Below are positions 38,301-57,240 of a DNA stretch of 59,964 nt, piece by piece. The notes under the pieces are model-generated. The model saw only the letters and a program-made list of their open reading frames with translations, did no database searches and had not been told where the DNA came from. Position numbers and translations under genes: made by a program. This DNA comes from Candidatus Coatesbacteria bacterium (GTDB lineage: Bacteria > JAFGND01), in assembly GCA_016927185.1 (NCBI GenBank), contig JAFGND010000064.1, forward strand, positions 1-59,964. Reading direction: 5' to 3'. Numbering within the stretch: the first letter of the stretch is position 1; each line of letters opens with the position of its first letter.

Positions 38301-38329
38301 CAGCATACTTGTTTTTCATGGAGGAAAAT

Positions 38330-39763: not shown

Positions 39764-39877
39764 TTTTATTCTAAATATTTCTACTAAATTCAAGAGTTTG
39801 ATAAAAAACAGAAAACTAGTCTGACAAAATCTCCAAAGAACTTGACAAATCTATCTTTTCTTGGAACAGAGAGAACA

Positions 39878-42800
39878 ATGCAGTCAATATTCAAGTCATT
39901 AAAGGAAATAGCAAAAGGATTCTTATTCATAAGTATACTAATTGCCATCATTTGTACTGCACTTCTTATAATTACCTACAAGAATCAGACGATGCATTTA
40001 TATCTGGTAAGTTCACTAGCTACTTTATCAAAGCTGGTTGTTAATGGCTCAATAAAAGTAGATTCAATAGAAGGAGATCTATTTTCTCATGTCAGAATCA
40101 GGAATGCTGAGTTTTTTTATTACAGAACACCAGAAAAACCTTTTGTTAAGATAAAGGATATTGAGTTATTTTGGAAACCTGTCTATCTTTTTCTTGATAA
40201 AAAGGTTTTTATTGATAGTCTCAAGATAACTACTCCAAATTTTTATTTCAAGAGATATCTTCCCCAGGCAGATTGGAATATTGCTGATTTCTTCAAGAGT
40301 AAATCAAAAGCAAAATCAAAAACGGATATTTCCTTTTTTGCAACCAAGATAATAATCAAGGATTCAAACGGTATTGTTGATGATAGCGGAAAAGCTTATT
40401 ATACATTCAAGAAGTTGAAAATGGATGCAATACTGACTTCCAGTGAAAATGGTTTCTATGTATTGCTTAATGAATTAGATGGGAAAAGCAATGAACAGAG
40501 ATTCAGATGCAAGTTGATAAGTATTGATAAGGATGAACTCGGTATAAATATCAAGGGGAAGCAATTATTATTGAATGAAAGAAGTGTTTTGACAGGAATT
40601 GGAGGGCATCTCAGAGGAAAGGAAGATATTCTTTTCAAAGTAAGAAAGAGTCAGGTTTATTATCAGGATATATATCATTTCATTCCTGCAGATTTGCTTT
40701 TCAGGGGAGGATATTATACCTTGACTAATACAAATATAGGTTATAAGGAAGATAGTTTTTTTATAAACTCATTTGCAGTCTCTGATTCTATACCTTTTTA
40801 TACCCTTGATTTTTATAAAGCAAAAGGAAGATTTGATTTCTGGAAAAAAAGACTCAATATGTCTGATTTTTACGCAAAGTACTTTGATACATATTGGCAT
40901 CTGAATTATTCTAACATTGATTTCAGGGATTTTAGTTATACAGGAAAAGGAACTTTCAAAGGCTTCAATCTGAAAAGCACTGGAGTAAAAGGCCTTAGAG
41001 GGAAGATTGATGGTCAATTTATGATAAAGGGAAAGCAGTTTCTTCCTTCTAAAAGGCATTTCAATTTCAAGATAATTACAAAAGGAATCCTTTTTCAGGA
41101 TTACAGTTCCAGTTTTGTTGAAGCTGCTGGTGTTTACAATCCTTCTAATGTCAATTTCAGCAATTTAAAAATTGCATCGAAGAATGGAGTGGTTGATTTC
41201 AAGGGAACTGTTTTCAGGAATGGGAATTTTGATTTGAGTGTTAAATCAAGCAACTTTCCATTATTAAAACCGCTTCCTTTTAAGGGATTAGCCAGTTTTA
41301 ATGGACAATTGAAAGGATCTTTAAAAAACCTTGCTGTTCAGGGAAGAGGCAATATAAGAAATTTTGGTTGGGAAGGTGTTTATGCGAGTAATTTAACAAT
41401 AAACAATCTGTTGATCCAGGGGATAAATACAAGTGATTTCAATTATTTTTTCATGGGAAATGTTAATCTGAACGCACAAGGAGTAAATATAGGAAGGATA
41501 GAAGCAAATACCGGAGAAGTATTAGCCTTTTTTCAACCTAATAATATTATCATTCAAAGAGCTAAATTTGAGCTTCCTGATTTCCTTGTTGTAACAAGAG
41601 GAAATTGGGAGTTATCAACTGTTTATAAGGAGTTATATCTTAATAACACAAGAATTCAATCAGCCAAAGGGGTTTTCACGAATATAAATCCAATACATTT
41701 GAGTTTTGGAGATCGGGGAATAGAAGTTCAATCAATGCAGTTTAATTATGCAAAATCAGGTTTTGATAAAAAACTTGGTACTGTAAAGGTAGGAGGATAT
41801 TTTACCTATTCTGGAGATATAAATAGGATAAATATAAAAGGGAACAAGTTTAATATAGGGGAGTTATCTGGATTGTTCTTTCCAAGACACAGAATAAGTT
41901 CAACAGCAGACTTTGATATGGTTTTAAAAGGAAGTTTCTCAAATCCCCAAATTAATGGTAAGGTTGACCTGCATAAAACAGTCTATCATACTGGAAGCGT
42001 AAAGAATCTAGGTATTTCACAAAAACTGAATGATTTAAGAAAACCAGATGAGCATTCAGAAGATCCTTTCGCTTTAAAGGAAGTAAAACCTACAAGCATT
42101 CAGAGTGAATTTGGAAAGATAGATTTCAGTTACAAGGATGGTTGGTTGAATATAGAAAATGCCAGTTTTTATCAGAATAAAATACCTTCAGTTGTAAAAG
42201 GAAGGATTCCTGTAAAAGGAAGTTCGGATAAAGACGAGATAGATATGCAGATGGATATTAAAGGAATAGACACTGATTTATTAGGTTTATTTACAGATAT
42301 AATTACGTTAAATAAAGGTGATGTCTCTTTCAAGGGGACATTGAAAGGGACATTGGAAAAACCAGAAATTGATGGGAAAATGTCCATAGAAAATGGTCAG
42401 GTAGTTTTCATTCCAACTGGAACTATATTCACAGGTGTAAATGCTTATCTTGCATTTGTATATGACAGAATTTTGTTTGGAGGAGATCCATATTTTATAG
42501 AAGCAAAAACTCCTGAAGGTGGAAATATCTATGTGAATGGGAAATTAGATATTGGAGGATTTAAATTAAACCATATTCTTGCAAAAATAGAAGCACAAGA
42601 CATTCTTTTTGATGCAATTCCTGATATTGTAATAAAGGGCGATGCTTCATTGTTTGTTTATGGTCCCCCTGACCATATTCTTGTCAAAGGTAATGTAGAA
42701 TTGACTGAAGGTTTAATAAGTATCCCGTTCAACCAGGAAGAGACAATAGAATACAATCCTTCTTCAGGAGCACTCCAATATGATTTAAGAATCAGAGGAG

Positions 42801-43549
42801 ATAACAATATCTGGTTAAAAAACCAAGATATGAATGCTGAAATCCAGGTTGATATGGGATTTAAATGGTGGAATAAGGATATAATTTTTATAGGAAACCT
42901 TGAAACCTTGAGAGGTGAATACTATATTCTTGGCAATGAAATGAAAATTGAGGAAGGTTCGTTGATTTTCAATAATAATCCTGAATTTAATCCAAGACTT
43001 AATATTATAGCTTCAACTATGATTAGAGGTTCAGTAAGAGAGGAAGATACTATTATTAAAGCAAAACTTACTGGTACACTAAGAAAGAGCAATCTTGAGC
43101 TAACTGCTTATGATTATCTGGAATTTCCCAAGAAGGACTATAGCCAGGCTGACATATTATCCATGATAGCATTAAGAATGACATGGGCGGATCTTGAAAG
43201 AAGCAAGCCAAGTGGAGTAATGAGAAATCAAGGTCTGACAACAGCCTTGACTTCAGTGAGTGTACTTATGACTAGAGGTTTGGGAAAAAACTTTGGTTTG
43301 TCTACATTTTACATAAAGACGGATTTAGGTGCTACTTCATCAAAAACACTGGAGGTTACTGCAGGAAGATATATTTTAAGGAATTTATATCTTTCATATA
43401 CCCAGGATATAGTAAACAAAAGAGAGCAAGAGATATCTCTTGAATATATGCTGAATAGAATTCATTCTGTTCAGGTAAGTACCGATTATGATAAGGACTT
43501 GAAGGAAAGATTATTTAATCTTGACTGGAAAATACTATTTAAATATTAG
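39878..43549 (+). CDS. tamB: Translocation/assembly module TamB-like (AsmA/DUF490) protein
   Basis: N-terminal TM, long Gly-rich beta-taenia repeats (LKGSFSNPQINGKV, LKGTLEKPEIDGKM), C-terminal NPRLNI..TAGRYI..LYLSY..EY..FKY. The track's TTG start at 39842 coincides with a TTGACA box. Confidence 0.85.
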   Translation: MQSIFKSLKEIAKGFLFISILIAIICTALLIITYKNQTMHLYLVSSLATLSKLVVNGSIKVDSIEGDLFSHVRIRNAEFFYYRTPEKPFVKIKDIELFWKPVYLFLDKKVFIDSLKITTPNFYFKRYLPQADWNIADFFKSKSKAKSKTDISFFATKIIIKDSNGIVDDSGKAYYTFKKLKMDAILTSSENGFYVLLNELDGKSNEQRFRCKLISIDKDELGINIKGKQLLLNERSVLTGIGGHLRGKEDILFKVRKSQVYYQDIYHFIPADLLFRGGYYTLTNTNIGYKEDSFFINSFAVSDSIPFYTLDFYKAKGRFDFWKKRLNMSDFYAKYFDTYWHLNYSNIDFRDFSYTGKGTFKGFNLKSTGVKGLRGKIDGQFMIKGKQFLPSKRHFNFKIITKGILFQDYSSSFVEAAGVYNPSNVNFSNLKIASKNGVVDFKGTVFRNGNFDLSVKSSNFPLLKPLPFKGLASFNGQLKGSLKNLAVQGRGNIRNFGWEGVYASNLTINNLLIQGINTSDFNYFFMGNVNLNAQGVNIGRIEANTGEVLAFFQPNNIIIQRAKFELPDFLVVTRGNWELSTVYKELYLNNTRIQSAKGVFTNINPIHLSFGDRGIEVQSMQFNYAKSGFDKKLGTVKVGGYFTYSGDINRINIKGNKFNIGELSGLFFPRHRISSTADFDMVLKGSFSNPQINGKVDLHKTVYHTGSVKNLGISQKLNDLRKPDEHSEDPFALKEVKPTSIQSEFGKIDFSYKDGWLNIENASFYQNKIPSVVKGRIPVKGSSDKDEIDMQMDIKGIDTDLLGLFTDIITLNKGDVSFKGTLKGTLEKPEIDGKMSIENGQVVFIPTGTIFTGVNAYLAFVYDRILFGGDPYFIEAKTPEGGNIYVNGKLDIGGFKLNHILAKIEAQDILFDAIPDIVIKGDASLFVYGPPDHILVKGNVELTEGLISIPFNQEETIEYNPSSGALQYDLRIRGDNNIWLKNQDMNAEIQVDMGFKWWNKDIIFIGNLETLRGEYYILGNEMKIEEGSLIFNNNPEFNPRLNIIASTMIRGSVREEDTIIKAKLTGTLRKSNLELTAYDYLEFPKKDYSQADILSMIALRMTWADLERSKPSGVMRNQGLTTALTSVSVLMTRGLGKNFGLSTFYIKTDLGATSSKTLEVTAGRYILRNLYLSYTQDIVNKREQEISLEYMLNRIHSVQVSTDYDKDLKERLFNLDWKILFKY

Positions 43550-43555
43550 ATTAAT

Positions 43556-44941
43556 ATGAAAAAGATAGTTATTGTTGATGATGAAATCTCTATAGTTATT
43601 CAGCTAAAGATGCTTCTAAAGGACTATAACTATGATGTTTTCGCAACAGATGATTCTCTTGAAGCACTTGATTATATTAGAAATAATCCTGTCGATTTAT
43701 TACTTTCTGATATAAGAATGCCTGAAATGAATGGAATACAACTGACAGAGGAAGTCCTTAAAATAGATCCTGGGATTGTGACGATTCTACTGACAGCTTA
43801 TGCTGATGTAGAAAGTACAATAGAGGCTATGAATAAAGGAGCATTCAAGTATATTGTAAAACCATACAAGAATGAAGAGGTTATAGAGGCAATCAAACAA
43901 GCTCTAGAAAGAAGCAGCTATATAAGAAGGCAGTCTGTTGCGACAACTGATGATATAATATCAATAGATCCCGATACAATAGTTGGCAAGAGTTCAACGT
44001 TCTTGTCAATAATACAGCAACTTCCTGCAATTGCAGCTAGTGATGCAACTGTTTTAATCATGGGAGAATCTGGTGTTGGGAAAGAGCTTATTGCAAGACG
44101 AATTCATAATCTATCTAACAGATGTGATCATCCTTTTGTTGCAGTTAACTGTGGAGCATTACCAGAGAATTTATTGGAAAGTGAGCTATTTGGATTTGTA
44201 AAAGGTGCTTTTACAGGAGCAATCAGCAAAAAAGCTGGATTAATGGCAACTGCTGAAAAAGGAACTTTTTTTATGGATGAAATTAGTGAACTTTCACTAT
44301 CACTTCAGGTTAAGCTTTTAAGAGCCATACAGAGAAAAGAAATATTACCACTGGGACAGACATTTCCTCAGTTAATAGATATAAGATTGATAGTTGCGAC
44401 AAATAAATACTTGTATGAGGAAGTAAAACGTGGAAGATTCAGGGAAGACTTATATTATCGCCTTAATGTAATTCCATTAGTAATACCACCTTTGAAAGAA
44501 AGAAAAGATGATATTGAAGAGCTTGTGAAGTTGTTTTTGAAAAGACTGAACATGGAAGATATGTTCGAAATGATTACAAAGGAAGCATGGGATAAATTAT
44601 TGGGATATAAATGGCCAGGTAATGTAAGGGAATTGGAAAATATAATAGAGAGGCTCGTGGTAGTAAAACATGGACAGAAGATATATGCAAGCGATATACC
44701 TATTGATTCTGAAAGCGAAAAAGATGAGATTACAAAGGATATAGAATATAAAAAAGACTTACTAATTGTATCACAATCCTCTGATAACAGTGAGATATTA
44801 GAGGAGTTTAATGGTACTCTTGCAGAATTAGAAAGTATATATATAAGGAATGTTTTGGAAAGAGTAGGGGGGAACAGGAACAAGGCTGCAAAAATTCTTG
44901 GAATAAATCCAGCCACTTTGTTCAGAAAGCTTAGAGAATAA
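43556..44941 (+). CDS. Sigma-54-dependent response regulator (REC-AAA+-HTH)
   Basis: VDDE, SDIRMP, GESGVGKE, intact GAFTGA, FMDEI, WPGNVREL, HTH. Confidence 0.95.
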   Translation: MKKIVIVDDEISIVIQLKMLLKDYNYDVFATDDSLEALDYIRNNPVDLLLSDIRMPEMNGIQLTEEVLKIDPGIVTILLTAYADVESTIEAMNKGAFKYIVKPYKNEEVIEAIKQALERSSYIRRQSVATTDDIISIDPDTIVGKSSTFLSIIQQLPAIAASDATVLIMGESGVGKELIARRIHNLSNRCDHPFVAVNCGALPENLLESELFGFVKGAFTGAISKKAGLMATAEKGTFFMDEISELSLSLQVKLLRAIQRKEILPLGQTFPQLIDIRLIVATNKYLYEEVKRGRFREDLYYRLNVIPLVIPPLKERKDDIEELVKLFLKRLNMEDMFEMITKEAWDKLLGYKWPGNVRELENIIERLVVVKHGQKIYASDIPIDSESEKDEITKDIEYKKDLLIVSQSSDNSEILEEFNGTLAELESIYIRNVLERVGGNRNKAAKILGINPATLFRKLRE

Positions 44942-44952
44942 TTATATGTAAT

Positions 44953-45744
44953 CTAGTATGAATTCTCTTGTTTAGGGAACTCAGTTTTTCTTACTTCCGA
45001 GCAATATTCATTAACTGCATCTTTTATAGTTTTTTCAAGTTCTGCATAGAATTTGACGAATTTAGGTTTAAAATCTGAGTTCATTCCAAGCATATCATTT
45101 AGTACAAGAATTTGACCATCACAATGTACGCCAGCTCCAATGCCTATTGTGGGTATATTTAGCGAATCAGTTATTTCTGAAGAGAGAGCAGATGGAATTT
45201 TCTCAAGAACTATTGAAAAGCAACCTGCTTCTTCAATACTTTTCGCATCACTTAGTATCTTATCTGCTTCTTGTTTTTGCTTGCCTCTTGTTGCATATGA
45301 ACCGAAGATGTTTATAGATTGAGGGGTTAATCCAAGATGACCCATTACTGGAATTCCAGCATTTACTATAGCTTCTATGATTTCCGGTTTTGATCCTTCT
45401 AACTTGACTGCCTGGGCTCTTGTTTCTTTCAATATTCTTCCAGATGATCTTATTGCTTCTTCTGTCGAAGATTGATATGAAAGAAAAGGTAAATCAGCTA
45501 CTAATAAACATGTTGGATTAGCTCTCTGAACACATTTTGTATGATATATAATCTCTTCAAGGGTTACGGGAAGTGTCGTTTCATGACCCTGGATAACCAT
45601 TCCAAGAGAATCTCCAATGAGTATCATATCTATGTCAGTAGATCCAATTATTTTTGCAAAACAATAATCGTAGCAGGTTAAGGCAACTATTTTTTTGTTG
45701 AGTTTCTTCATCTCAACTATATCTACAACACTCTTATTATGCAT
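44953..45744 (-). CDS. panB: 3-methyl-2-oxobutanoate hydroxymethyltransferase
   Basis: LTCYD, LIGDSLGMV, ADLPFLSY, VKLEG, GHLGLTPQS, IGIGAG..CDGQILV. Confidence 0.98.
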   Translation of the reverse strand: MHNKSVVDIVEMKKLNKKIVALTCYDYCFAKIIGSTDIDMILIGDSLGMVIQGHETTLPVTLEEIIYHTKCVQRANPTCLLVADLPFLSYQSSTEEAIRSSGRILKETRAQAVKLEGSKPEIIEAIVNAGIPVMGHLGLTPQSINIFGSYATRGKQKQEADKILSDAKSIEEAGCFSIVLEKIPSALSSEITDSLNIPTIGIGAGVHCDGQILVLNDMLGMNSDFKPKFVKFYAELEKTIKDAVNEYCSEVRKTEFPKQENSY

Positions 45745-45911
45745 TTCTCTCCTTTTTTGTCATATCATTGGTTTAAATAAAAAATGTCAAGTAAGCTAAA
45801 ATGAATCATTGCAATAAAGTCAGGAATATTATCCTGAATGAATGATAGAAATTAAAGAAGCTGTTTTTGTTTTCAATTGACATAAAGTATATTATGGAGA
45901 AGATAGAGGCT

Positions 45912-46511
45912 ATGAATACAATATTGATAAGAGACTTACCCTCAGCAATACTCATTGGATTATTATTGTTAGGCGTTAGCTGCAAGGAAAATGAAGGTGT
46001 AAATCAGGCATTTACAAGTACTGAATATGGAAAAAGCTTCTTCTCTTATGCTAGAATAGAGGCAAAACTTGATAGTCTTGAAAAAGCTCCAAAGACTGAA
46101 GAATTGAAACCAGGTGCAATGTGCTATTCAGTATGTGTAAATAATAATATTACGAATTTTGTTTGCCTGAAATGTGGCAAGGCAACTAAATATGATGTAT
46201 GGACATATGATCTTATTCAAACAACAAGAAGCAAATTGAATGGAATAAAGGAACTTGATATAAAAGTCATTGATAATGGTTTTTGTGAACACTGTTATCC
46301 TGGCACTACTCCGAAAACCTTCAAAATTTATATAAAATATTCAGACAAAAAGGATAGAATTGCAAGTAGTGTCAATTTCCATGAAGCTGAAGTACTTGTG
46401 CAATTCTTGAAAGGAAATCATGTTTTCACGGGTGAGCAAGGTAATGAAAGTGATATGAAACAATACTTGCCATTGTTGAAAAAAATTCTGTTGGGGAAGG
46501 AAGTAAAGTGA
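45912..46511 (+). CDS. GAMCY-motif Cys-rich lipoprotein A (putative radical SAM substrate)
   Basis: Start at ATG 45912 (after GAGG) gives a signal peptide with lipobox LGVSC. KPGAMCY-x12-CLKC-x36-CEHC. Confidence 0.8.
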   Translation: MNTILIRDLPSAILIGLLLLGVSCKENEGVNQAFTSTEYGKSFFSYARIEAKLDSLEKAPKTEELKPGAMCYSVCVNNNITNFVCLKCGKATKYDVWTYDLIQTTRSKLNGIKELDIKVIDNGFCEHCYPGTTPKTFKIYIKYSDKKDRIASSVNFHEAEVLVQFLKGNHVFTGEQGNESDMKQYLPLLKKILLGKEVK

Positions 46512-47113
46512 GATCTCTTATAATTAAATATGTTCCTGGAGCAATTTTGTTATTACTTCTGGTGTTCGGGATTTACAAGAATCCTGCAATTACGGAAAAA
46601 CTGTCAGCTGGAAAAAGTCAAAACCAGGATAAAACTACATTTTCTTCTATGGAAGCAAAACTTGACAGTCTTGCAAAAACACCGAAACAGACTGACTTGA
46701 ATCCCGGGGCAATGTGTTATGAACCAGTTTGTATCACTGATTATGCCAACTTTGTTTGCTCGAAATGCAACAAATCGACTATCCTGTCAAGAGAAGTGGT
46801 AGAGAATATTAGGAATGCAAAAGCAATGTTAACTAATATTAGGGGATTAAAAATAGTCATTGATGATTCAGGCTTTTGTGGACATTGCAATAAAAATAAA
46901 ACAGACCACTTCTTTAAAATAACAATATTTTATCCTGATAGAAAAGAACCAGTTACAAGTAAGTTATACATTCATCAGACAGGAATTCTTACGCAATTTT
47001 TAAAAGGGAATTTGATTTACAAGGGTGAAAGAGATTCTGAAAGTGATATGAAAACTTATTTACCATTACTGAAGAAAATTCTGCTTGGGATTGAGGACAA
47101 ACGCGAGCAATAA
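46508..47113 (+). CDS. GAMCY-motif Cys-rich exported protein B
   Basis: GTG start overlaps the stop of A. Hydrophobic signal or anchor without a lipobox Cys. NPGAMCY-x12-CSKC-x36-CGHC. Confidence 0.8.
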   Translation: MRSLIIKYVPGAILLLLLVFGIYKNPAITEKLSAGKSQNQDKTTFSSMEAKLDSLAKTPKQTDLNPGAMCYEPVCITDYANFVCSKCNKSTILSREVVENIRNAKAMLTNIRGLKIVIDDSGFCGHCNKNKTDHFFKITIFYPDRKEPVTSKLYIHQTGILTQFLKGNLIYKGERDSESDMKTYLPLLKKILLGIEDKREQ

Positions 47114-47158
47114 GCATATGAATTTCTATTGAAATATAAAAAGAGGAGATAATCTCTC

Positions 47159-47656
47159 ATGAATAGTTTTTTTTTCAAGGGTATTCCACCTGCACTTGCC
47201 AGAATATTGTTAATATGGGCTTTGTTTAGTATACCCCAGCATACGGCTAGTGCACATTTCTCGATATCTGAAAAATTTATTAAGGATCTAGATTGTATAG
47301 CAAAAGAAGAAAAATCAATTAATATGAAGATAGGAGCAATGTGTTATGTCTGTGTAGATATGGATGAGTACAAGAACTATATCTGTCCAAAATGCAAAAA
47401 AGCTACCAAATATGATGAAAAAATAATACTAAGGTTGAACTCCATAAAAAGACAATTCAAAGCTTTGAAAGGAGTAATTGTTGAAATTGACGACACAGCA
47501 TTTTGCAGTCATTGTAATCCTGGGAAACCGAAATTATTAAGGCTCAGTTTTACTTTTCCAGACAAAAACTTGAAAGTAGATTTATCAGTGACTCCTGAGC
47601 AAGCTCCAAATGTATTGAAATTATTTACAGCTTTTACGAATACCAGCACAAAATAA
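47159..47656 (+). CDS. GAMCY-motif Cys-rich exported protein C (C-terminally shorter)
   Basis: SD GAGGAG, signal peptide ending in ASA, KIGAMCY-x12-CPKC-x36-CSHC. It lacks the LKKILLG tail. Confidence 0.8.
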   Translation: MNSFFFKGIPPALARILLIWALFSIPQHTASAHFSISEKFIKDLDCIAKEEKSINMKIGAMCYVCVDMDEYKNYICPKCKKATKYDEKIILRLNSIKRQFKALKGVIVEIDDTAFCSHCNPGKPKLLRLSFTFPDKNLKVDLSVTPEQAPNVLKLFTAFTNTSTK

Positions 47657-47667
47657 AGGAGAAAGAG

Positions 47668-48249
47668 ATGGGTAGTATTTTGAAGCATATTCCTTCGGCA
47701 ATTCTTGTTGTATTGCTTCTATTGGGAATATCATGCAGAGATAATACCAAAAACTCCTTATCTGCAGAAGAAACGAATAAGGGATTCAGAAACTATTCTT
47801 CTATTGAAGCTAAACTAGATTCTCTTTCAAAAGCATCTAAGCAAAGAGATCTTAATCCAGGAGCTATGTGTTACAAGGTAGCATTTGATAGAACAACTGA
47901 GACTTTCATTTGCGGTAAATGCAAGAAAGGAACAGTTTATAACGCAAAAGAATATAACAGGATTATTGAAGCGAAAAGAATTCTAGAAAGCATTAAGAAT
48001 ATAAAAATAATCGTTGATGATAGTGGATTCTGCAGTAATTGCAGTAAAGGTAATGTGATATACAAATTTAAACTAACAATTCAATATCCTGATAGAACTG
48101 AACCTGTTTATAGCGAAATTCATCTAAATGAAGTTTCATTATTGAAACAATTTTTGGAAGGTAAACTGGTTTTTAGAAGTGAAAATGATAATGAAGAAGA
48201 AATGAAGAATTATTTGGAGAAACTAAAAAAGATCTTGTTAGGGAAATAA
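47668..48249 (+). CDS. GAMCY-motif Cys-rich lipoprotein D
   Basis: SD AAGGAG, lipobox LGISC, NPGAMCY-x12-CGKC-x36-CSNC. Confidence 0.8.
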   Translation: MGSILKHIPSAILVVLLLLGISCRDNTKNSLSAEETNKGFRNYSSIEAKLDSLSKASKQRDLNPGAMCYKVAFDRTTETFICGKCKKGTVYNAKEYNRIIEAKRILESIKNIKIIVDDSGFCSNCSKGNVIYKFKLTIQYPDRTEPVYSEIHLNEVSLLKQFLEGKLVFRSENDNEEEMKNYLEKLKKILLGK

Positions 48250-48268
48250 AAAACAGAACGATTGATAA

Positions 48269-49426
48269 ATGAACCAGGAAATCCAGAGTTTAGCGGTAGA
48301 TACAATTCTTCCAAGCACTTGTGTCATTGAACTTACTTATAATTGTAATCATAAATGTCTTTATTGTTCATGCCCCTGGGAAGCTCCTTCTCCCAAATTC
48401 AAGAAGGATAAACTGCTGAATAAAGAGGAATGGAAGAAATGCATTAATCATCTTGTTGAAAAGCATAATATAGTCGATATCGCATTTACAGGTGGAGAAC
48501 CAACTCTATATCCAGATATAAAAGAACTTATAGCATTTGCTTCAAGACTGGAAGGGCTAAGTTATGAAATAGAAGAAGGAAGCGGGAAAATTGTAACCAG
48601 GAAAAGAAAGGTAAAAATACATTTAATAAGTAATGGAAGAAATGTAAGTGATGAAATAATTGACTTGATTGCTGAAAATGAAGGTTCAATGAGTGTTTCT
48701 TTACCTGGTTTAAAAACATATAGCTATCATACAGGCATAGAAAATGCATTAGTCCCTCTTGGAACGCTTAAAAGAATTCATGACAGGGGAATACAGGCTA
48801 CTCTCAATGTAACCGTAACAAAAGTCAATCTATTTGAGTTATATGAGACTATAGCTGAAGGATTAATAGCGGGAGCAAGGTTTTTGCTTATGAACAGATT
48901 CTTACCAGGAGGAAGGGGTCTTCTTTATTCAAAAGAGCTTTCCTTAAACAGAGAACAATTGATTGAGGCACTTGATATAGCAGAATCTGTTCTATCAAGA
49001 GCTGATATAAAAGGATCATTGGGAACAGAGGTCCCCAAATGTGTTCTTAATGGTAAGAAATGGGATCATATATCAACAGGAACTTTATGCAGTGCTACAA
49101 TCAGTTTTTTTGTAATTGATCCATCTGGTAGAGTAAGAGTTTGCAATCATTCAGAAAATGTATTAGGGCATTGGACTGAAATAGAAAAAATAGTACTTCA
49201 TGATTACTGGCAGAAATTCCTGCACAAGAAGTTCATTCCTCAGATCTGCAAATCCTGTGTTGAAATAGGAGAGTGTGATGGAGGTTGTAGAGAAGCTGCC
49301 AACATAGTAAATAATGAGCTATGTTCTCTTGATCCTTTACTTAAGGAAGAGGGATTTATTAAACCGGAAAAAGAAATTTCATTATCTTTTAATCAACTGA
49401 AGAGCATATTTGAAGGTGATGAATGA
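48269..49426 (+). CDS. Radical SAM/SPASM domain protein
   Basis: ELTYNCNHKCLYC (CxxxCxxC at residues 26-33), FTGGEP, SPASM CSATISFFVIDPSGRVRVC and CKSCVEIGECDGGC. Confidence 0.95.
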   Translation: MNQEIQSLAVDTILPSTCVIELTYNCNHKCLYCSCPWEAPSPKFKKDKLLNKEEWKKCINHLVEKHNIVDIAFTGGEPTLYPDIKELIAFASRLEGLSYEIEEGSGKIVTRKRKVKIHLISNGRNVSDEIIDLIAENEGSMSVSLPGLKTYSYHTGIENALVPLGTLKRIHDRGIQATLNVTVTKVNLFELYETIAEGLIAGARFLLMNRFLPGGRGLLYSKELSLNREQLIEALDIAESVLSRADIKGSLGTEVPKCVLNGKKWDHISTGTLCSATISFFVIDPSGRVRVCNHSENVLGHWTEIEKIVLHDYWQKFLHKKFIPQICKSCVEIGECDGGCREAANIVNNELCSLDPLLKEEGFIKPEKEISLSFNQLKSIFEGDE

Positions 49427-50922
49427 TAACCAAATCGGGCAATTTGAAAAAATACTATATCTTCATTATCATTGTAATCTGGCTTTTTTATTCGTTGATA
49501 TGGCTGGATAAATATCCTCTTCTATTCATGGATGAGAACTGGGATCTTGTTACTCCTTATTCTGTAATAACAAAAGGTAAATTTGCAACTCCATTTCTTT
49601 CGGAAATCTTTAGTGAGCATTTCAGAAGAGTAGAACCTAGATTATTTCATTTGGTTTTATTCATTCCATTTGGATATATATTTGGTGTAAGCCATATTAC
49701 AGCAAGAATATTAACTGTTTTATTAGGGCTGGGTTCAATTGTTTTCCTTTTCTATCTCATGAAGAAATACCTGGATGATAATGTGGCTTTTGCTGGAAGC
49801 TTGCTATTGATAACTGAAACTCTGTTCTGGACGATTTCAAGAAGTTACAGACCTGAAATTGGACTTACTTTTATTACTATTGCCAGTTTTTATTTCCTTG
49901 ATAAAGTCATAAATAAAAGCAATTTATCAAGCTGGTTTATGCTTGGATTATTCACAGGGATTGGAGGATGGACACATTTGAATTTCGTGTTCATTGCTAT
50001 AGGTATTTTTATATTTCTATTGTTCCATTATAAAACAAGATTATTAAAGGATAGAGGATTTTATTATTACCTTATTGGAGGAATAATTGGCTTTTTACCT
50101 TTTGCTTTGTGGATTTTATATTCTGGAATAAATCTTTTTCATGAACAAACCATTGCTTTAAGGAGTGATAGAACAGGACCATTTAGCTCCTTGTTAACTC
50201 TTCTAAATACTATTTATCTTGAAGGAAGAAGATATAGTAATGTAATCCTTTTTCCCAAAAGAATATTAGTGTTTATAATTGAAATAGGATCATTGATATA
50301 TATATTCAAGAAAAGAAAAAAGAATCCCACCTTCTTGGGTATTCTTTTTGTTTCAGTGTTTTATATGATTTGCATTGCTGCATTTATTACTCATAAAACA
50401 CCAAGATATATTGCATGTCTTATTCCAGTTTTTGTTTTCTCAATAATGATTTTGTTGAAAGATCTTTATGAAACTGGATATAAAAAAATTGCATATACAA
50501 TATTCACCATATTCCTTCTTAATAATTTAGCAGGGAATGCATTCGTTCTTTATAGAGACAGGAATGAAAGCTATTCAATAGTAAGGGAAAAGATAAGAAA
50601 TGTTATTCCCATGAATGCCAGGATTTTTGGATCTACAAATCTCTGGCTAGCATTGAAAGAAAATGAATACTTGATTACAGATTATTTCAGAATTGATGGG
50701 TTCTTGAAATTTGATCCTGACTATATAGTATTGATAAATCCTGATTCAAGATATGTAAGAACTTCTCAAATAATAGAAGCTCCTTACAACGAAAGTATTG
50801 ATAATTACAAATATTTCTATGACTGGATGAAAGATTATGTTTTCTATAGTGGAGGAAAACTTATCGGGACATACGAAGTTGGAAGATATGGCCCGATTGA
50901 TGTTTTCAAGGTAAGAAAATAG
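49423..50922 (+). CDS. ArnT/PMT-like (GT-C fold) polytopic glycosyltransferase
   Basis: First TM followed by a DE motif (MDENWD), ARILTVLLG, SRSYRPE, about 12 TMs, KTPRY. ATGA overlap with the radical SAM gene. Confidence 0.85.
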   Translation: MITKSGNLKKYYIFIIIVIWLFYSLIWLDKYPLLFMDENWDLVTPYSVITKGKFATPFLSEIFSEHFRRVEPRLFHLVLFIPFGYIFGVSHITARILTVLLGLGSIVFLFYLMKKYLDDNVAFAGSLLLITETLFWTISRSYRPEIGLTFITIASFYFLDKVINKSNLSSWFMLGLFTGIGGWTHLNFVFIAIGIFIFLLFHYKTRLLKDRGFYYYLIGGIIGFLPFALWILYSGINLFHEQTIALRSDRTGPFSSLLTLLNTIYLEGRRYSNVILFPKRILVFIIEIGSLIYIFKKRKKNPTFLGILFVSVFYMICIAAFITHKTPRYIACLIPVFVFSIMILLKDLYETGYKKIAYTIFTIFLLNNLAGNAFVLYRDRNESYSIVREKIRNVIPMNARIFGSTNLWLALKENEYLITDYFRIDGFLKFDPDYIVLINPDSRYVRTSQIIEAPYNESIDNYKYFYDWMKDYVFYSGGKLIGTYEVGRYGPIDVFKVRK

Positions 50923-50945
50923 CTGATATTTAATCAGCTATTTGT

Positions 50946-51935
50946 TTACTTTCTTATTAACCAGTATTTTACAGTCTTATCCTTGCTTCCAGAAATTGCA
51001 TGCTTTCCATCATCTGATATTGAGACTGATGTAACAACATCTGTATGGCTTGAGAATGTATTGATGCAAGAAGCATTATCTATTTGCCATAGTTTCATGG
51101 TCTTATCATTACTGCCTGAAAGTATATATAAACCATCTTTTGATATTGCAATTGAGTTTACAGAAGCCGAATGACCGGAAAATGTTTTTGTACAGGCTCC
51201 ATTTGTTAAATCCCAATACTTTATTGTTCCATCTTGACTTCCAGAAGCTCCTTTTTTACCGTCAGGAGAAAAAGCAACTGAATATACTGCATCTGTATGA
51301 CCATTCATTTCCCTAAGCAAAGATTTATTCTTGAGATCCCAGTATTTGACGGCAAAATCATCACCACAAGTTAATGCATATATGCCCTGGCTGCAGAATT
51401 TAACTGATCTTACATAGCCCGTATGTGCATCGGTTGAATAAACTTCTTTACCATCACTCAAAGTCCAGTATTTTAGGAACCTGAAAGTGCCAAGCAATCC
51501 ATATGCAGCATCAGGGCTTATATCTACTGTATAAACAACATCTCCGCTGATATTGAATTCCTGGCAGGTACTATTGTTTATATCCCAGTATCTTACCATG
51601 TAATCGCTATATCCTGAAATCAAATGTGTACAATCAGGGGAGAAAACTGATGAATAAACATTTCCTCCAAGATAGATCAACTCTTTAAGTACTTTATTGT
51701 CAGTTACTTGCCAATATATTATTTTGCCCCCATCCTCTGCTGATATAGCCTTAGTACCATCTGTACTAAGATCCAGCGAATTAATCGTTGAATTATGTTC
51801 TGAAAATGTTCTTATTAGACCTATTTCTTCCCCATTATTGTCTCCATCACCATTATCAGTGGAATCATCTCCACAAGATACTGATAAGATGGCAAAACAA
51901 ATCAGAAGAGTGACAAAAAGATACATCCTGCTCAT
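50946..51935 (-). CDS. WD40-repeat (about 7-blade) lipoprotein
   Basis: Lipobox SVSC, repeated GH..V.SVAFSPDG...SGS.D.T.KYWD units. The likely start is ATG 51935, after AGGAG. Confidence 0.92.
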   Translation of the reverse strand: MSRMYLFVTLLICFAILSVSCGDDSTDNGDGDNNGEEIGLIRTFSEHNSTINSLDLSTDGTKAISAEDGGKIIYWQVTDNKVLKELIYLGGNVYSSVFSPDCTHLISGYSDYMVRYWDINNSTCQEFNISGDVVYTVDISPDAAYGLLGTFRFLKYWTLSDGKEVYSTDAHTGYVRSVKFCSQGIYALTCGDDFAVKYWDLKNKSLLREMNGHTDAVYSVAFSPDGKKGASGSQDGTIKYWDLTNGACTKTFSGHSASVNSIAISKDGLYILSGSNDKTMKLWQIDNASCINTFSSHTDVVTSVSISDDGKHAISGSKDKTVKYWLIRK

Positions 51936-52042
51936 TCCTTCTCCTTTCAAGACGTTATTTCTTATGTTCTATATTCTGCTTTTAAATGTCAAGCATCAAT
52001 AAAAAACAATTATTTGACAAGAAAAATATCACTGGATTCTAA

Positions 52043-52657
52043 TTGAATATGTATCTTTTGAATTCATCATTCAAACCCTCATCCAATGGCTGGAAATTCG
52101 CTAATGATTTTCAGTTTAGTATTCCAATACTTAAGCCATTTCATAGCGGATTTTGTGGAGGGATGTGTTGGTTAGCCTTAAAGATATTTCATGAAAAAAG
52201 GAATATACCTGATATTTCTAGTACTCCCATAGAAGGTGAAGACCTGTTTAATGAGCTATTCAGAATGCAAATAAAGTCAGTAATCAAGATTGTCCATAAG
52301 GTTTATTTTTGGCAGATAAGCTCATACAATAAGCTCGATAGAAAAACGTTGCTTGAGGTTAAATTGTTGAAGAATTACTTAGAAAAAGAAGAACCAGTTA
52401 CATTATGTCTAATTAAAACAAACAAATTTTTTGGAAATATAACAAGAAATCATCAAGTGATAGCTTATGCAATGAGGCAGGAAGAGAAATCTGATAACAA
52501 TACAGAGATATTTATCTATGATCCCAATTATCCGTGCAGGGATGACATTTGCATAAATATAGTAAAAACTGAAAAAGGACTATTTATTAAGGATATGAAT
52601 AAGGGAGAGAGGATAACTGGTTTTTTCATAAATCATTTTTCAGTTAATTCAATCTAA
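52043..52657 (+). CDS. Hypothetical protein with papain-like Cys-His-Asp triad
   Basis: GFCGGMC, NHQVIAY and IYDPN occur in the order expected for a papain-like fold. Confidence 0.6.
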   Translation: MNMYLLNSSFKPSSNGWKFANDFQFSIPILKPFHSGFCGGMCWLALKIFHEKRNIPDISSTPIEGEDLFNELFRMQIKSVIKIVHKVYFWQISSYNKLDRKTLLEVKLLKNYLEKEEPVTLCLIKTNKFFGNITRNHQVIAYAMRQEEKSDNNTEIFIYDPNYPCRDDICINIVKTEKGLFIKDMNKGERITGFFINHFSVNSI

Positions 52658-54604
52658 TTTTATAACAGGCAATACTTTTCTATTTTTACCACTTATTACT
52701 TTGAGAAAGTATCTTCCTGGTCTTAATTTCTCGGTTTCAAGTACTAATGTTTCCTGCTTAAGACCTGCTTTTGTCCTGCTTGTTTTTTTCATGAGCAATC
52801 TTCCAGAAATATCGTAAACTGAAATGGATATTTCCTGATTCTCTGCAAAACTTGCAAAAATCTTTACTTTGAGTCTGTCCTTGAAAGGATTTGGAAATGT
52901 GCTTGCATTGAACAAAGGTCTGAGAATGGTTGAATAATAGTTATTTTTGTTGAATCCCATGTTTCCTTTCAGAACAGGAAGAGATATATAGGAATAATAT
53001 TGATTATTACCAGATTTACCATGCCAGATAGTGTTTTGGGCAATCTTAGTATGTGTGCTTTTCCCAAATGTTTCACCAGTATTTGGATTTGTCTCGAATC
53101 TTGGATAATTACTTGAAGAAATCGCTATCCGGATTCTATGATCCTTGTCGAAAGCTGTAGCAATTGACCATAAATCTATCTTCATTTCATATATTTTTCC
53201 TGGTTCAAGGAAATCCTCTCCATCAATTCTCTTATAGTGTCTTCCCATCAAAATTCCATCTGCAAGCAGGATTGATCTGCCATCTGGGTAAACATCAGTT
53301 ATCTTCGCAGTGAAATCAGTGTCTATGCAGTTAGAAGTTACAAACAAATGAACTTTTACTGGACCAATGACAGTAACTGGTTCCTTGAATACTTCACTCT
53401 GATAAACTAGTACATCGCTCCTGTTTTCCTGTTCCCTCTGATCAGCAAACCCCCAGTTTCTTGTCAGATTTCTGCCGCCATTAGTTGGAACTGGATTGTC
53501 AGGATTATAAAAAAATTGCTTGTAATAAGGTTGTGATGATGGGAAAGAATTCCTGAGTAATGCTCCATCGCCATTAAGAAACCATTTTTCATATACTACA
53601 CTATCTGGTGGCCAGACATCTGTGGTGAACCATTCATTGCCAGGAGATGTTGGATATCTGTCAACATCACCAAGCAAGTAATAAGTCATTAGGGGCAGGT
53701 CCATTATGTTATTTTGCTCTCCCTTCAAGTGATAAGCCCACCAGTCTATGATATGTTTGTAATAATCATAAGTGCCATTTGGAGGAAGTGTCATTTCTCC
53801 CTGTTGTCTCTGATTGAAATCGCAGTGACTCCACCATCCCATAAGAAGTTTCTGATTTCCCCTGGCTCCCTCTCCTCCATATTTCTGTATATCCCACATT
53901 GCATTGATAGTTGCATCACAGAAAATATCTATAAAACCACCAACATGGAAACCTGGTGTTCTTACGGAATCCAGTCTTGTTCTGAGATCCATTTTTGCCC
54001 ATGTTGAATCATAATTTGGATGCGATCTCCAGAATTCCCACATCCACATTGATCCCTGTCCATTCAACCAATCCCAAAGCATAGAGTATCTGAATTCTCC
54101 ACCCTGAAAAACTGCATAATTGTAAAAGTCATAGGTTGCCACTTCTGGAGTGATGCAAGTTAGATGAGGTGGATGAGCACCTGCAGCAAGAAGCTGGACA
54201 ATGCCGCATGCACTTGCACCCCACATGCCAATTCTTCCATTACTCCATGATTGAGCTGCTATCCATTCTATAGTGTCATACCCATCTTGTTTTGTTCCCC
54301 AGCCATCATCCCAGAAGCAAGAGTCTATTCCCTGGCTTTCATATCTTCCCCTTGTATCCTGAGTGACATATATATATTTCAAATCATCAGTTATATATTT
54401 TATTGTTGAAGAATCAACGTCAGAATTTTTGTTATAAGGAGTTCTGTGAAGTATAACAGGCATTTCTCCGCTATACGAATCCGGAAAATAGACATCAGTT
54501 GAAAGCAATCTATTATCTCTCATTTTGACATTATGAGATGTTCTGGTGAATGCATAAAGAGAGATAGTAGCAAAAAGAATTATAATACAAGTTATTCTTC
54601 TCAT
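52649..54604 (-). CDS. CocE/NonD family hydrolase with T9SS type A-like C-terminal domain
   Basis: RTPYNK, QDTRGRYESQG, DTIEWIAAQSWSNGRIGMWGAS, SSSNYPRF. CTD with FPNPF..VYDISGR..GRYFLKV. Confidence 0.93.
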   Translation of the reverse strand: MRRITCIIILFATISLYAFTRTSHNVKMRDNRLLSTDVYFPDSYSGEMPVILHRTPYNKNSDVDSSTIKYITDDLKYIYVTQDTRGRYESQGIDSCFWDDGWGTKQDGYDTIEWIAAQSWSNGRIGMWGASACGIVQLLAAGAHPPHLTCITPEVATYDFYNYAVFQGGEFRYSMLWDWLNGQGSMWMWEFWRSHPNYDSTWAKMDLRTRLDSVRTPGFHVGGFIDIFCDATINAMWDIQKYGGEGARGNQKLLMGWWSHCDFNQRQQGEMTLPPNGTYDYYKHIIDWWAYHLKGEQNNIMDLPLMTYYLLGDVDRYPTSPGNEWFTTDVWPPDSVVYEKWFLNGDGALLRNSFPSSQPYYKQFFYNPDNPVPTNGGRNLTRNWGFADQREQENRSDVLVYQSEVFKEPVTVIGPVKVHLFVTSNCIDTDFTAKITDVYPDGRSILLADGILMGRHYKRIDGEDFLEPGKIYEMKIDLWSIATAFDKDHRIRIAISSSNYPRFETNPNTGETFGKSTHTKIAQNTIWHGKSGNNQYYSYISLPVLKGNMGFNKNNYYSTILRPLFNASTFPNPFKDRLKVKIFASFAENQEISISVYDISGRLLMKKTSRTKAGLKQETLVLETEKLRPGRYFLKVISGKNRKVLPVIKLD

Positions 54605-54648: not shown

Positions 54649-57240
54649 CTAGTTTCCAATTTTTAGTATCTTACCATCAAATTTCTCTGAATCTGCTTCT
54701 ATTATATAGAAATATACACCAGATTTCAGATTATTGATTTTTTGTGTGCAGGACTTGCCAGATACTTCTTTCCTTGCTTCTTTCACTAATCTTCCACTTA
54801 AATCATAAATCTTGATTATCGCAGCTGTTTTCGGTTCTCTATTGAAGCTTATGTTAAGAACATCTTTTACAGGATTTGGATATGTACTAATTCTCAGTTT
54901 ATCTGGTAACCTGACAGCAGATTTTCTTGAGTAAAATGAACTCTCGGAAATATTATATCCATAAACAGCGAAAGTATCATCAGTTCTGTCACTATACCAG
55001 ATTACCTTTATATCGCTCTTGTTTTGTACGATTACTGGTTCAAGATCCTGAGCAGGATCGGAAGCGATTATTTCAGGAGTTGCCCAGTTGACAGCATCAT
55101 CTGATATCGTCAATGCAACTTCCCAGTCAGTAGCACTTTTAACATTGAAAACCATGTAATACAGACCTGCATTAGTGATTAAAAGATTTGGTTCTGCGAA
55201 AATCCCGGTTGCATTCAGGGCATCCCTGGCGTTATCAAATGAAGTGCCATTCCATTTTGAAGTCATGATCTTCTGTTTACCAGAAGTATCTGTTAATATC
55301 CACGAAGCAACAGCTAATCCATTCTTTGAGGAAATTGCAGGAGTTGATACATAACCTGAGGGTCCTGAAATAGTAGCAGGAGAAGACCATTTTTCATCAT
55401 AGATTGACCAGTTTATCCTTGAATAACTGTCTGTTGCTTCTACCCACAAGGCTAGATATTTGCCATCTCCAAGATATCCAATAGATGGAGTATAATGTTC
55501 TCCTTTTCCGTTAGAAAGTTGATCTGGACTGGTTTGCCATGAAGTGCCGTCATAAAAAAGTGAATAAATATCTGCCTGGGTATTGTTGAAATTTTTGTAA
55601 ATAAGCATCATCTTTCCATTTTGTCCTGCTGCAAATGAAGGTTCAGTATCACAGCAAAGAGGAGTTGTAAGTCTTTTAGGGGATCCAAAAGCATTTCCAT
55701 CCCAGTATTTTGCAATTATGTCAAAATTCTCGTCTCCACCGTATCTGTAATTCTGCCATACAAACCAGGTTCCGCCCAAGTCATCAGAGCAAACATTTGG
55801 GCAAGCATCCCAGTAATGATAGTCTTCTACAACAACTCCATCATGCCATGAACCATCATTATATGCTGCATAAATGTCCATTCTTGTGTTTCTTGCACTC
55901 TCAAATACAACCCATATCTTGCCATTTATATCTACAGCAGCATTTGAATTTCCATCGGAAAAACCTGAATTTGTTATTTTTTCGATTTCTGCTCTTGATT
56001 TATGAACAGGATAGTTTTTTGCACTGTCAGGAACATATTTTGTTGTAGTCCTGATTTTTAGTGAAGGATCACCTAATAATGTCATTCCAGCAAGATCAGC
56101 TACAGAATAGGAAGCAACAAGAGCATTATATGCCTGTCCCAGAGTCTTGCCTTTTGCCAACTCCACATATAAGGAATCATAATGAATTGCATAAGCTGTA
56201 CGAGCTTCACCTATTGAAACTAGTGAATAATCGTTTGTAAACAAATACCAGTTTCCTATATTATCCTGCTCAACATACCGATTAACCATGCAAGCTTCAA
56301 GCGCAAAGAAAATGCATGGTGGATTCAGTGCTTGAGGTTCAAAACAGAGATATGTTCCCTCACAGGGATCTTCTCCATTAACAAGGAAAGTGTCTCCCCA
56401 AGGTGAACTGTGAGAAAGAAGATGTACCCATTCATATCCCTTCTTCATTTCCCTTTTGAAATGGGCAGCAGTCGTTGAATCATCTTCATAGAATGCAGTA
56501 ATGTCATCATATGCCAGTTTCATCCCTTCTATTGGGTCTGAGTAATATCTGAACGTATCAAGATATATCAATGCACGTCTAGGTATTACAGTATCGTATC
56601 CACCAGTTCTGTAAAGATGGTTTTTTCTGAAGTAATTCTTCAGCAAGGATATCTCACTACCCCAGCTTAAGCGTGAGGCATATAAACGCCCAAAAGCGAG
56701 CTTTCCATTTACATGACCTGGTATCTGATCAATTTTTCCATCATTATCTCTGTCAGTCCATGTACCATCCATATCCGTAAAGTACATGTCAACAGGATAC
56801 TCTCCATGGAAATCTCCCCTTGTTTGCTCATACCATGCAAGAGGTAAATCTCCTATCATCAGAACATGAGTTGCTCCGCTTTGATACTGGGATTTAAGTT
56901 CCTCCCTCAACTCGATATAATTACCTCCAGACCAGCTCAATATTACAACAGAAAAACCGTCATTCTGAAGATCGGTCTGAAAGGTTGCCAATTCATTTAT
57001 CAATGGAGCAACAAGTTTAGGTGTTATTACAATAACAAAGACTGGACTATCTATGCTTATATTACCTGATTTTGAGATGATTTTTTTCTCTACAGGTGCA
57101 TCAACAAATCGTTGTTTCCATTCCAGATAACCTGTCGGTTTCTTGCCTAATGCATCTATATATCTTATAATGGGATAAGATAATGGATTGCGACCAAACA
57201 GGAACATCGGTAAAAACATCAGAAGAAATAAGGTTTTCAT
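54649..57240 (-). CDS. C25 (gingipain-like) cysteine peptidase with beta-propeller region and T9SS type A-like CTD
   Basis: Signal peptide, VLMIGDLP, YFTDMDG, LAFGRL, His (LSHSS) and Cys (EACMV) dyad, LLGDPSL, propeller repeats. CTD with YPNPV..IYDLSGRLV..SGVYFY. Confidence 0.85.
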   Translation of the reverse strand: MKTLFLLMFLPMFLFGRNPLSYPIIRYIDALGKKPTGYLEWKQRFVDAPVEKKIISKSGNISIDSPVFVIVITPKLVAPLINELATFQTDLQNDGFSVVILSWSGGNYIELREELKSQYQSGATHVLMIGDLPLAWYEQTRGDFHGEYPVDMYFTDMDGTWTDRDNDGKIDQIPGHVNGKLAFGRLYASRLSWGSEISLLKNYFRKNHLYRTGGYDTVIPRRALIYLDTFRYYSDPIEGMKLAYDDITAFYEDDSTTAAHFKREMKKGYEWVHLLSHSSPWGDTFLVNGEDPCEGTYLCFEPQALNPPCIFFALEACMVNRYVEQDNIGNWYLFTNDYSLVSIGEARTAYAIHYDSLYVELAKGKTLGQAYNALVASYSVADLAGMTLLGDPSLKIRTTTKYVPDSAKNYPVHKSRAEIEKITNSGFSDGNSNAAVDINGKIWVVFESARNTRMDIYAAYNDGSWHDGVVVEDYHYWDACPNVCSDDLGGTWFVWQNYRYGGDENFDIIAKYWDGNAFGSPKRLTTPLCCDTEPSFAAGQNGKMMLIYKNFNNTQADIYSLFYDGTSWQTSPDQLSNGKGEHYTPSIGYLGDGKYLALWVEATDSYSRINWSIYDEKWSSPATISGPSGYVSTPAISSKNGLAVASWILTDTSGKQKIMTSKWNGTSFDNARDALNATGIFAEPNLLITNAGLYYMVFNVKSATDWEVALTISDDAVNWATPEIIASDPAQDLEPVIVQNKSDIKVIWYSDRTDDTFAVYGYNISESSFYSRKSAVRLPDKLRISTYPNPVKDVLNISFNREPKTAAIIKIYDLSGRLVKEARKEVSGKSCTQKINNLKSGVYFYIIEADSEKFDGKILKIGN

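Follow-up and report, generated by a model that had tools for sequence, protein, structure and literature searches.

A 59,964-nucleotide (nt) stretch from a Candidatus Coatesbacteria bacterium (assembly GCA_016927185.1, contig JAFGND010000064.1, positions 1–59,964 of the forward strand; 'the window' hereafter) contains four tandem genes for small proteins that share the motif G-A-M-C-Y, followed by a gene for a radical SAM/SPASM enzyme, and this pairing is conserved in 64 of 79 loci from other genomes. Neither Pfam nor NCBIfam has a model for the GAMCY proteins, and no equivalog model covers the enzyme. The undescribed pairing put forward in a preliminary description of the window was borne out as a conserved, unnamed pair; it probably marks an undescribed protein-modification system. 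We favour, as fairly probable, a two-part cassette in which a SPASM maturase lacking a RiPP recognition element (RRE; RiPP, ribosomally synthesised and post-translationally modified peptide) docks on zinc-ribbon-like GAMCY proteins and modifies them at a Cys-Tyr pair, after which they would be membrane-tethered. That radical SAM/SPASM enzymes tailor short peptides is well established; to our knowledge, their proven whole-protein substrates are few: sulfatases, QhpC and CrpA (2026). The cassette would add a large family (925 clusters, at least 79 species-level genomes) with one sharply defined site and no RRE.

Loci were collected by a scan of one genome per species with a 16-sequence alignment as query; of 285 pattern matches, 96 were confirmed and 80 kept, and these make up 79 distinct loci (designated L with a number where needed). 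According to record titles, 79/79 are from metagenome-assembled genomes (MAGs), labelled Planctomycetota, Verrucomicrobiota, Lentisphaerae/Victivallales, Kiritimatiellia, Bacteroidota, Fermentibacteria and relatives, Armatimonadia, Melainabacteria, Desulfobacterales, Riflebacteria, Fibrobacteres, Spirochaetes or 'uncultured bacterium'. The preliminary description had suggested checking how often GAMCY homologs adjoin enzyme orthologs: on these MAG loci, an ortholog directly adjoined the GAMCY gene or genes, on the same strand, in 64/79 cases (64/72 when loci cut by a contig end are set aside), with phmmer E-values of 1e-45 to 1e-115 and identities of 38–51% (47 aligned). The enzyme gene lay downstream in 62 of these 64 loci and upstream in two (L019 and L022), GAMCY genes flanked it on both sides in three, and its start overlapped the preceding stop by 4 nt in 24/64. 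Among the 15 loci without an enzyme gene, seven stop at a contig end no more than 181 nt past the last GAMCY gene; the other eight are weighed below. When 1084 filtered open reading frames (ORFs) from around the loci were clustered, the GAMCY family was present in 75/80 sources and the enzyme family in 61/80, while the next cluster reached eight: GAMCY proteins and enzyme are the only families conserved around the loci.

One could suppose that the adjacency of the two genes carries no functional meaning, the motif being part of a structural zinc-binding fold. This is scarcely credible: the pairing holds in 64/79 loci over several phyla while all other neighbours change, the start and stop codons overlap in 24/64, and a predicted complex of the two products, described below, passed its controls.

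GAMCY copy number varied between sources, with one copy in 30, two in 27, three in 14, four in seven, five in one and seven in one, some of these counts being lowered by contig ends. The largest array seen, L018 (6771–11289), has seven tandem GAMCY genes and then the enzyme gene. Occasional further genes follow the cassette: a second radical SAM gene, of the B12-binding kind, in L060 (4816–6495), and a hemerythrin gene in the Fermentibacteria loci L064 (3624–4046) and L066 (11732–12178).

In the window, the cassette lies in a block of six same-strand (plus) genes, flanked by a divergent panB and a convergent WD40 gene, with the following features (aa, amino acids).

44953–45744, minus strand: panB, divergent neighbour of the six-gene block
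45912–46511, plus strand: GAMCY paralog A, 199 aa, GAMCY at residues 68–72, CxxC at 85–88 and 125–128
46508–47113, plus strand: GAMCY paralog B, 201 aa, GAMCY at residues 67–71, 42% identity to A
47159–47656, plus strand: GAMCY paralog C, 165 aa, GAMCY at residues 59–63, 27% identity to A
47668–48249, plus strand: GAMCY paralog D, 193 aa, GAMCY at residues 65–69, 45% identity to A
46113–46127 (A), 46706–46720 (B), 47333–47347 (C) and 47860–47874 (D), plus strand: GAMCY motifs, placed by alignment
48269–49426, plus strand: radical SAM/SPASM enzyme gene, 385 aa, PF04055 and TIGR04085
49423–50922, plus strand: GT-C (PMT_2) membrane glycosyltransferase gene, 499 aa, PF13231
50917–50943, no strand assigned: terminator-like hairpin of 11 pairs (consensus match only) at the end of the six-gene block

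The open frame of A extends upstream as far as a TTG at 45867, and the ATG at 45912 lines up with the starts of its paralogs and of P0007 and P0008. B starts with GTG, overlapping the stop of A by 4 nt; C, the copy with the greatest divergence, is without the C-terminal helix ending in LLG. The D stop codon, TAA, occupies 48247–48249, which leaves a spacer of 19 nt before the enzyme gene, and the enzyme and GT-C genes overlap at ATGA; spacer and overlap, both asserted in the preliminary description, were read directly. The hairpin is common to the end of the GT-C gene and the convergent WD40 gene. A promoter scan did no better than on shuffled sequence (30 found, 30.8 expected), and Rfam gave nothing in 44900–52100.

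The GT-C gene had been proposed as a third part of the system, and a three-part arrangement, in which the glycosyltransferase would glycosylate exported, radical-SAM-modified GAMCY proteins, has some appeal: its gene overlaps that of the enzyme and ends at the terminator-like hairpin, and PMT_2-type enzymes, among which its product falls (PF13231, 63.6 bits against a cut-off of 26.1), act at the outer membrane face, where lipoproteins would be. However, a GT-C homolog was found in 0/79 related loci. No PMT_2 gene was present among 21 same-strand downstream genes scanned; some matched no family at E≤1e-5, and the rest had families with no relation to each other (scramblase, CheR, SurE, hemerythrin, ABC ATPase and others). 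No neighbour cluster other than the cassette itself exceeded eight sources. As a general component the glycosyltransferase is excluded and this part of the proposal was dropped; we regard the three-part system as very unlikely. The GT-C gene is co-transcribed at the window locus and stands outside the conserved cassette and, given its absence from all 79 loci, is at most a local addition in the host genome.

The GAMCY family is itself sharply defined. Four-way alignment of A–D confirmed exactly the coordinates and the spacing claimed earlier for the tandem, co-oriented paralogs, in which GAMCY is followed by x12-CxxC-x36-CxxC, and left nine invariant residues (A numbering): G68, A69, M70, C71, Y72, C85, C88, C125 and C128. 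A word-index protein search with the four paralogs recovered 11 proteins, as though the family were rare; an exhaustive profile search over 1.84 billion representatives, clustered at 50% identity, overturned that impression, with 925 clusters at E≤1e-3, 662 at E≤1e-10 and 111 at E≤1e-30. Across 363 unique members, C71, C85, C125 and C128 had a frequency of 1.0, C88 and Y72 of 0.99, A69 of 0.99, G68 of 0.94 and M70 of 0.93; where the Met is replaced (by T, L, E, S or C) the Cys-Tyr pair is kept. The motif was found in 152/166 family domains from the window and the 79 other loci. This recurrence, together with 93–100% conservation of each letter, argues that GAMCY is not a chance likeness.

Members of the family seen under source names were called 'hypothetical protein' or carried stray automatic labels. 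Three entries of the protein collection, P0004, P0005 and P0009, are close counterparts of B, D and C respectively (P0009 being of a type near-identical to C), each with a longest contig of 2232 nt. These counterparts are consistent with the same diverged array in a related genome, and so with the paralogs being old.

Full-length proteins, of about 200 aa, open with a hydrophobic segment, from which a low-complexity linker leads to a unit of about 150 aa. This unit is predicted to comprise one helix, the G-A-M-C-Y loop and an alpha/beta domain centred on two CxxC knuckles of zinc-ribbon/rubredoxin type (consensus VCPxCG). The AlphaFold2 model of A (mean predicted local distance difference test score, pLDDT, 80.3; predicted template-modelling score, pTM, 0.70) places the four knuckle Cys at strand turns. 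All 23/23 members longer than 260 aa are two to three repeats of one unit (profile positions ~41–205); since they repeat this segment, the unit can be taken as helix, GAMCY loop and zinc-ribbon-like domain together. Fusion to foreign domains was considered and rejected, none occurring in those 23 members, which hold repeats alone.

The unit lacks a described relative among the collections searched. No Pfam or NCBIfam model reached its cut-off with A–D; central members gave no Pfam match above cut-off and no NCBIfam match at E≤1e-9 (10 other members in the NCBIfam case), and such Pfam zinc-ribbon matches as the GAMCY proteins had were all below cut-off. Compared with PDB structures, the AlphaFold2 model matched nothing at E≤0.001 (best 0.33); the family profile gave weak zinc-finger matches alone among PDB sequences (E≥0.0066), with no solved relative, and the ESM Atlas gave only 'hypothetical protein' clusters.

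The enzyme belongs to the radical SAM superfamily (PF04055, 65.9 bits against a cut-off of 29.5) and its SPASM subgroup (TIGR04085, 33 bits against 27), PF13186 alone falling below its cut-off (16.1 against 21.5). Alignment of 48 orthologs showed a cluster motif C26-x3-C30-x2-C33, all three Cys invariant, followed by an invariant S-C35-P-W, and seven Cys in the SPASM region, of which 258, 274 and 292 are invariant and 327, 330, 336 and 340 occur in at least 90%, in a pattern that includes CxxCx5CxxxC. Because the cluster motif already begins at residue 26, there is no N-terminal RRE domain; the enzyme had no PqqD-type Pfam match and the loci no conserved third gene, which places it outside the RRE-dependent class. 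What does precede the cluster motif is a conserved N-terminal strand (consensus APSFLP) in which F13 is nearly invariant and L14 and P15 are invariant. One ortholog departs from this build, the ORF at L025 (10612–11616, Bacteroidetes MAG) stopping before the CxxCx5CxxxC block; a frameshift or an error of assembly may be the cause, or the gene may be truncated.

The AlphaFold2 model of the enzyme (pLDDT 91.5) found as its nearest solved folds, with Foldseek, SkfB (E 6.8e-18), SuiB, anSME, ChlB, CteB, TigE and PqqE, and by sequence SkfB (6efn, 4.8e-14) and PqqE (1.2e-9) were nearest. Two tetrapyrrole enzymes, NirJ2 and AhbD, are also among the sequence matches, scoring much as the peptide maturases do; PADLOC returned only a generic N-terminal likeness to viperins. 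The enzyme neared no equivalog cut-off, and orthologs from five loci were likewise far below. Comparison with TIGR04133 and TIGR04134, which the preliminary description had recommended in case the family were already named, returned neither accession: A–D gave no match to either model at E≤0.1, 10 other GAMCY members gave none at E≤1e-9, and both were absent from the matches listed for the enzyme and five orthologs (the best 25 for the window enzyme and for L021).

Prediction of the enzyme–GAMCY complex, another suggestion of the preliminary description, was carried out with the alignments of both chains matched by locus. It passed its controls, with a median ipSAE of 0.72 (runs 0.73, 0.02 and 0.72) against 0.25 for the best control; the pass mark was reached by 58/80 solved complexes and 2/110 mismatched pairs (approximate figures, own alignments used). 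The complex runs share at least 51% of contacts, with a partner pLDDT of at least 68, and since the GAMCY fold is without a relative in the PDB, the prediction is unlikely to have passed by repeating a memorised structure. Confident contacts join enzyme residues 5–17 and SPASM residues 273–335 to residues 76–95 and 124–135 of the GAMCY protein, which are the two knuckle strands. Lying within these contacts and conserved in orthologs, the enzyme strand might take the role of an RRE. On this reading, the loop immediately before residue 76 would be directed into the cleft that separates the core from the SPASM domain.

How the GAMCY proteins are disposed with respect to the membrane bears on any such encounter. 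A–D each have an N-terminal hydrophobic segment, ending in lipobox-like LLGVSC in A and LLGISC in D, both with one K/R ahead of the hydrophobic run; that of B is without Cys and that of C is followed by TASA-HF. Over 327 members, the hydrophobic run had a median of 20 residues and was closed by a lipobox-like [GAS]C in 118, with marked differences by lineage label (Planctomycetota 16/18, Bacteroidota 15/32, Fermentibacteria-like 0/32); Fermentibacteria-like GAMCY proteins begin M-W-Y. Some lineages may lipidate these proteins and others simply anchor them. A K/R preceded the run in 54/327 members and followed within 10 residues in 312/327. These figures, the run length included, tell against a classical signal peptide; the charge pattern would fit either a cytoplasm-facing anchor or co-translational export. 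The claim that A–D are exported stood in part: hydrophobic N-termini are present in all four, with lipobox-like GVSC in A and GISC in D, and these may be cleaved export signals or membrane anchors. We lean towards export over a cytoplasmic anchor, since the recurrent Cys at the end of the run is hard to account for in another way; an orientation towards the cytoplasm would be no less suited to a zinc ribbon and to an enzyme in that compartment.

These features suggest how the cassette might operate. It would consist of one to seven genes for proteins of about 200 aa (four here), acting as substrates, and then a gene for a dedicated radical SAM/SPASM enzyme. In the cytoplasm the N-terminal strand (5–17) and SPASM domain of the enzyme would dock onto the zinc-ribbon hairpin, replacing the RRE/leader recognition used for peptide substrates, and the loop ahead of the hairpin would be presented to the SAM site, where the invariant Cys-Tyr would be modified before export or final folding. 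As a first guess the product might be a thioether formed from the Cys, its thiol held on the open iron of an auxiliary cluster, since this fits the seven-Cys SPASM pattern and the nearest folds include thioether-forming enzymes. Cys oxidation like that of anSME, easier to thread through Sec, and a C–C link at the Tyr, echoing PqqE and MftC, are alternative chemistries. The modified protein would remain membrane-tethered, as an exported lipoprotein in many lineages. Variable copy number and repeat fusions are what one might expect of substrates, and strong divergence around fixed residues also favours the scheme.

Several observations weigh against this scheme. What is shown is the pairing of the genes, the conserved motif and the domains of the enzyme; every functional step, from substrate status and modification site to chemistry and topology, rests on inference. 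GAMCY residues 68–72, put forward as a recognition or modification site in the preliminary description, fall outside the confident contacts, and one of the three complex runs scored 0.02. Past the Cys, no residue but the Tyr is conserved at a fixed short distance as an obvious crosslink acceptor. The flanking charges described above count here too, in that co-translational export would limit the access of a cytoplasmic enzyme. Finally, eight of the 72 uncut loci, with at least 1200 nt available downstream, have no enzyme gene in the flanks examined (for one, L079, these cover only 226 nt upstream). Four of the eight have an enzyme-linked locus in the same assembly (L012/L043, L040/L047, L065/L020 and L074/L070), and GAMCY is kept in seven of the eight.

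The CPxCG-type four-Cys site could, moreover, mean that in the GAMCY protein the enzyme has a redox or metal partner instead of a substrate. The GAMCY proteins would then be membrane tethers, or electron or metal donors resembling rubredoxin, and the enzyme would act on a lipid, a cofactor or another protein. The two CxxC knuckles do resemble a metal site, the complex model has its confident contacts at the hairpin and not at GAMCY, the flanking charges would suit a cytoplasm-facing anchor in most members, and the tetrapyrrole enzymes NirJ2 and AhbD match the enzyme about as well as peptide maturases do. We nevertheless judge this unlikely: as many as seven diverged copies to one enzyme, and fusions of two to three units, look like the behaviour of substrates and not of a stoichiometric partner, the invariant Cys-Tyr loop would have no role, no other conserved gene provides a substrate, and [GAS]C in 16/18 Planctomycetota proteins points to exported lipoproteins, which would be out of reach as redox partners.

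If GAMCY proteins are instead substrates, as we prefer, a more specific outcome can be entertained tentatively, though we would not count on it: the Cys-Tyr may be converted to a novel crosslink or cofactor derived from the protein itself, such as a thioether beside the four-Cys metal site, by an enzyme that reads a folded domain through its N-terminal strand. The redox or metal proteins so formed, tethered to the membrane, would be a class not seen before, widespread in uncultivated anaerobic lineages of the Planctomycetota–Verrucomicrobiota–Lentisphaerae, in Bacteroidota and in Fermentibacteria. The question is directly testable, enzyme and putative substrate genes being adjacent and small.

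Comparison with known maturases places the cassette near several systems and inside none. anSME, a radical SAM and SPASM enzyme of ~370–385 aa without an RRE, acts in the cytoplasm on one Cys, set in a short fixed motif within a whole protein that has an N-terminal export signal. The window enzyme shares its size and RRE-less SPASM build, and its fold (4k37; TM-scores 0.65–0.66 by query, TMq, and 0.68–0.69 by target, TMt), but scores 33.1 bits with TIGR03942 against a cut-off of 349.45 and has seven conserved Cys in the SPASM region where anSME has eight ligating Cys. The anSME motif C-x-P-x-R is absent from A–D, which carry predicted 150-aa zinc-ribbon units and are not sulfatases; on the TIGR03942 score and the lack of C/S-x-P-x-R, membership was rejected.

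QhpD is a SPASM radical SAM enzyme that forms intraprotein Cys thioether links in QhpC, a small protein on its way to the periplasm and the gamma subunit of quinohemoprotein amine dehydrogenase. The likeness lies in the combination of SPASM enzyme and small protein substrate (putative for GAMCY proteins); unlike the QhpD system, GAMCY loci have no dehydrogenase subunit, protease or exporter genes conserved nearby, and TIGR03906 scores are 39–44 bits (window enzyme 39.4) against a cut-off of 453. Closest to the enzyme in sequence and in fold are RiPP maturases of the PqqE, MftC, SkfB, PapB and SuiB type; the target is a Tyr for PqqE and MftC, and a Cys for SkfB and PapB. Those enzymes handle short peptides with an RRE or a PqqD partner, neither of which is present here, and the equivalog scores are low: for PqqE (TIGR02109), 67 bits for the window enzyme and 67–103 with orthologs against a cut-off of 381, and for MftC (TIGR03962), 50.9 bits against 265. 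Scores so far below equivalog cut-offs led to rejection of PqqE, MftC and QhpD membership alike.

CrpC of Methanococcus voltae, described in 2026, is a further parallel. The published account portrays a SPASM enzyme with seven SPASM Cys that installs thioether links on a 28.8-kDa neighbour protein, in a cluster with a second paralogous gene, and enzyme–substrate engagement that is partly domain to domain (PMC13692751). Seven-Cys SPASM domains in CteB and CrpC are read there as leaving an open iron for the substrate thiol (PMC13692751). On that account, the seven SPASM Cys, the protein-size product of an adjacent gene and the paralogous substrate genes would be common to both systems, whereas CrpC has an RRE (TIGR04463) and CrpA consists of ten 17-residue Cys repeats, C-x-x-Q/D (PMC13692751), in place of the RRE-less enzyme, the one Cys-Tyr per unit and the predicted folded zinc-ribbon domain found here.

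By analogy, then, the cassette would work most like anSME with its sulfatases, QhpD with QhpC and CrpC with CrpA, while the tests for each of those families leave it outside them. No literature on the GAMCY motif or the gene pair was found (subscription journals and supplements lay outside the scope of the search). A large maturase/substrate family, so far unnamed, in which the substrate is of protein size and recognition does not use an RRE, would be new within SPASM maturases. Its members are labelled 'hypothetical protein' and come nearly all from uncultivated lineages; an established function would allow a named model for genome annotation.

Elsewhere in the window, three proteins end in a type IX secretion system (T9SS) C-terminal sorting domain (PF18962), encoded at 38309–39763 (plus strand), 52649–54604 (minus strand) and 54649–57240 (minus strand); they comprise a PLD-like protein, an S15 X-Pro dipeptidyl peptidase and a third that is without other Pfam domains. 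The sorting domains indicate a Bacteroidota-like host (FCB group). The region 39842–44941 (plus strand) encodes a TamB-family protein of 1235 aa and then a sigma-54-dependent response regulator, with no link to the cassette seen. The ORF at 52043–52657 (plus strand) encodes 204 aa for which neither Pfam nor NCBIfam gave a match at E≤0.1. The convergent gene at 50946–51950 (minus strand) encodes a WD40 beta-propeller protein whose hydrophobic N-terminus is followed by a lipobox-like SVSC.

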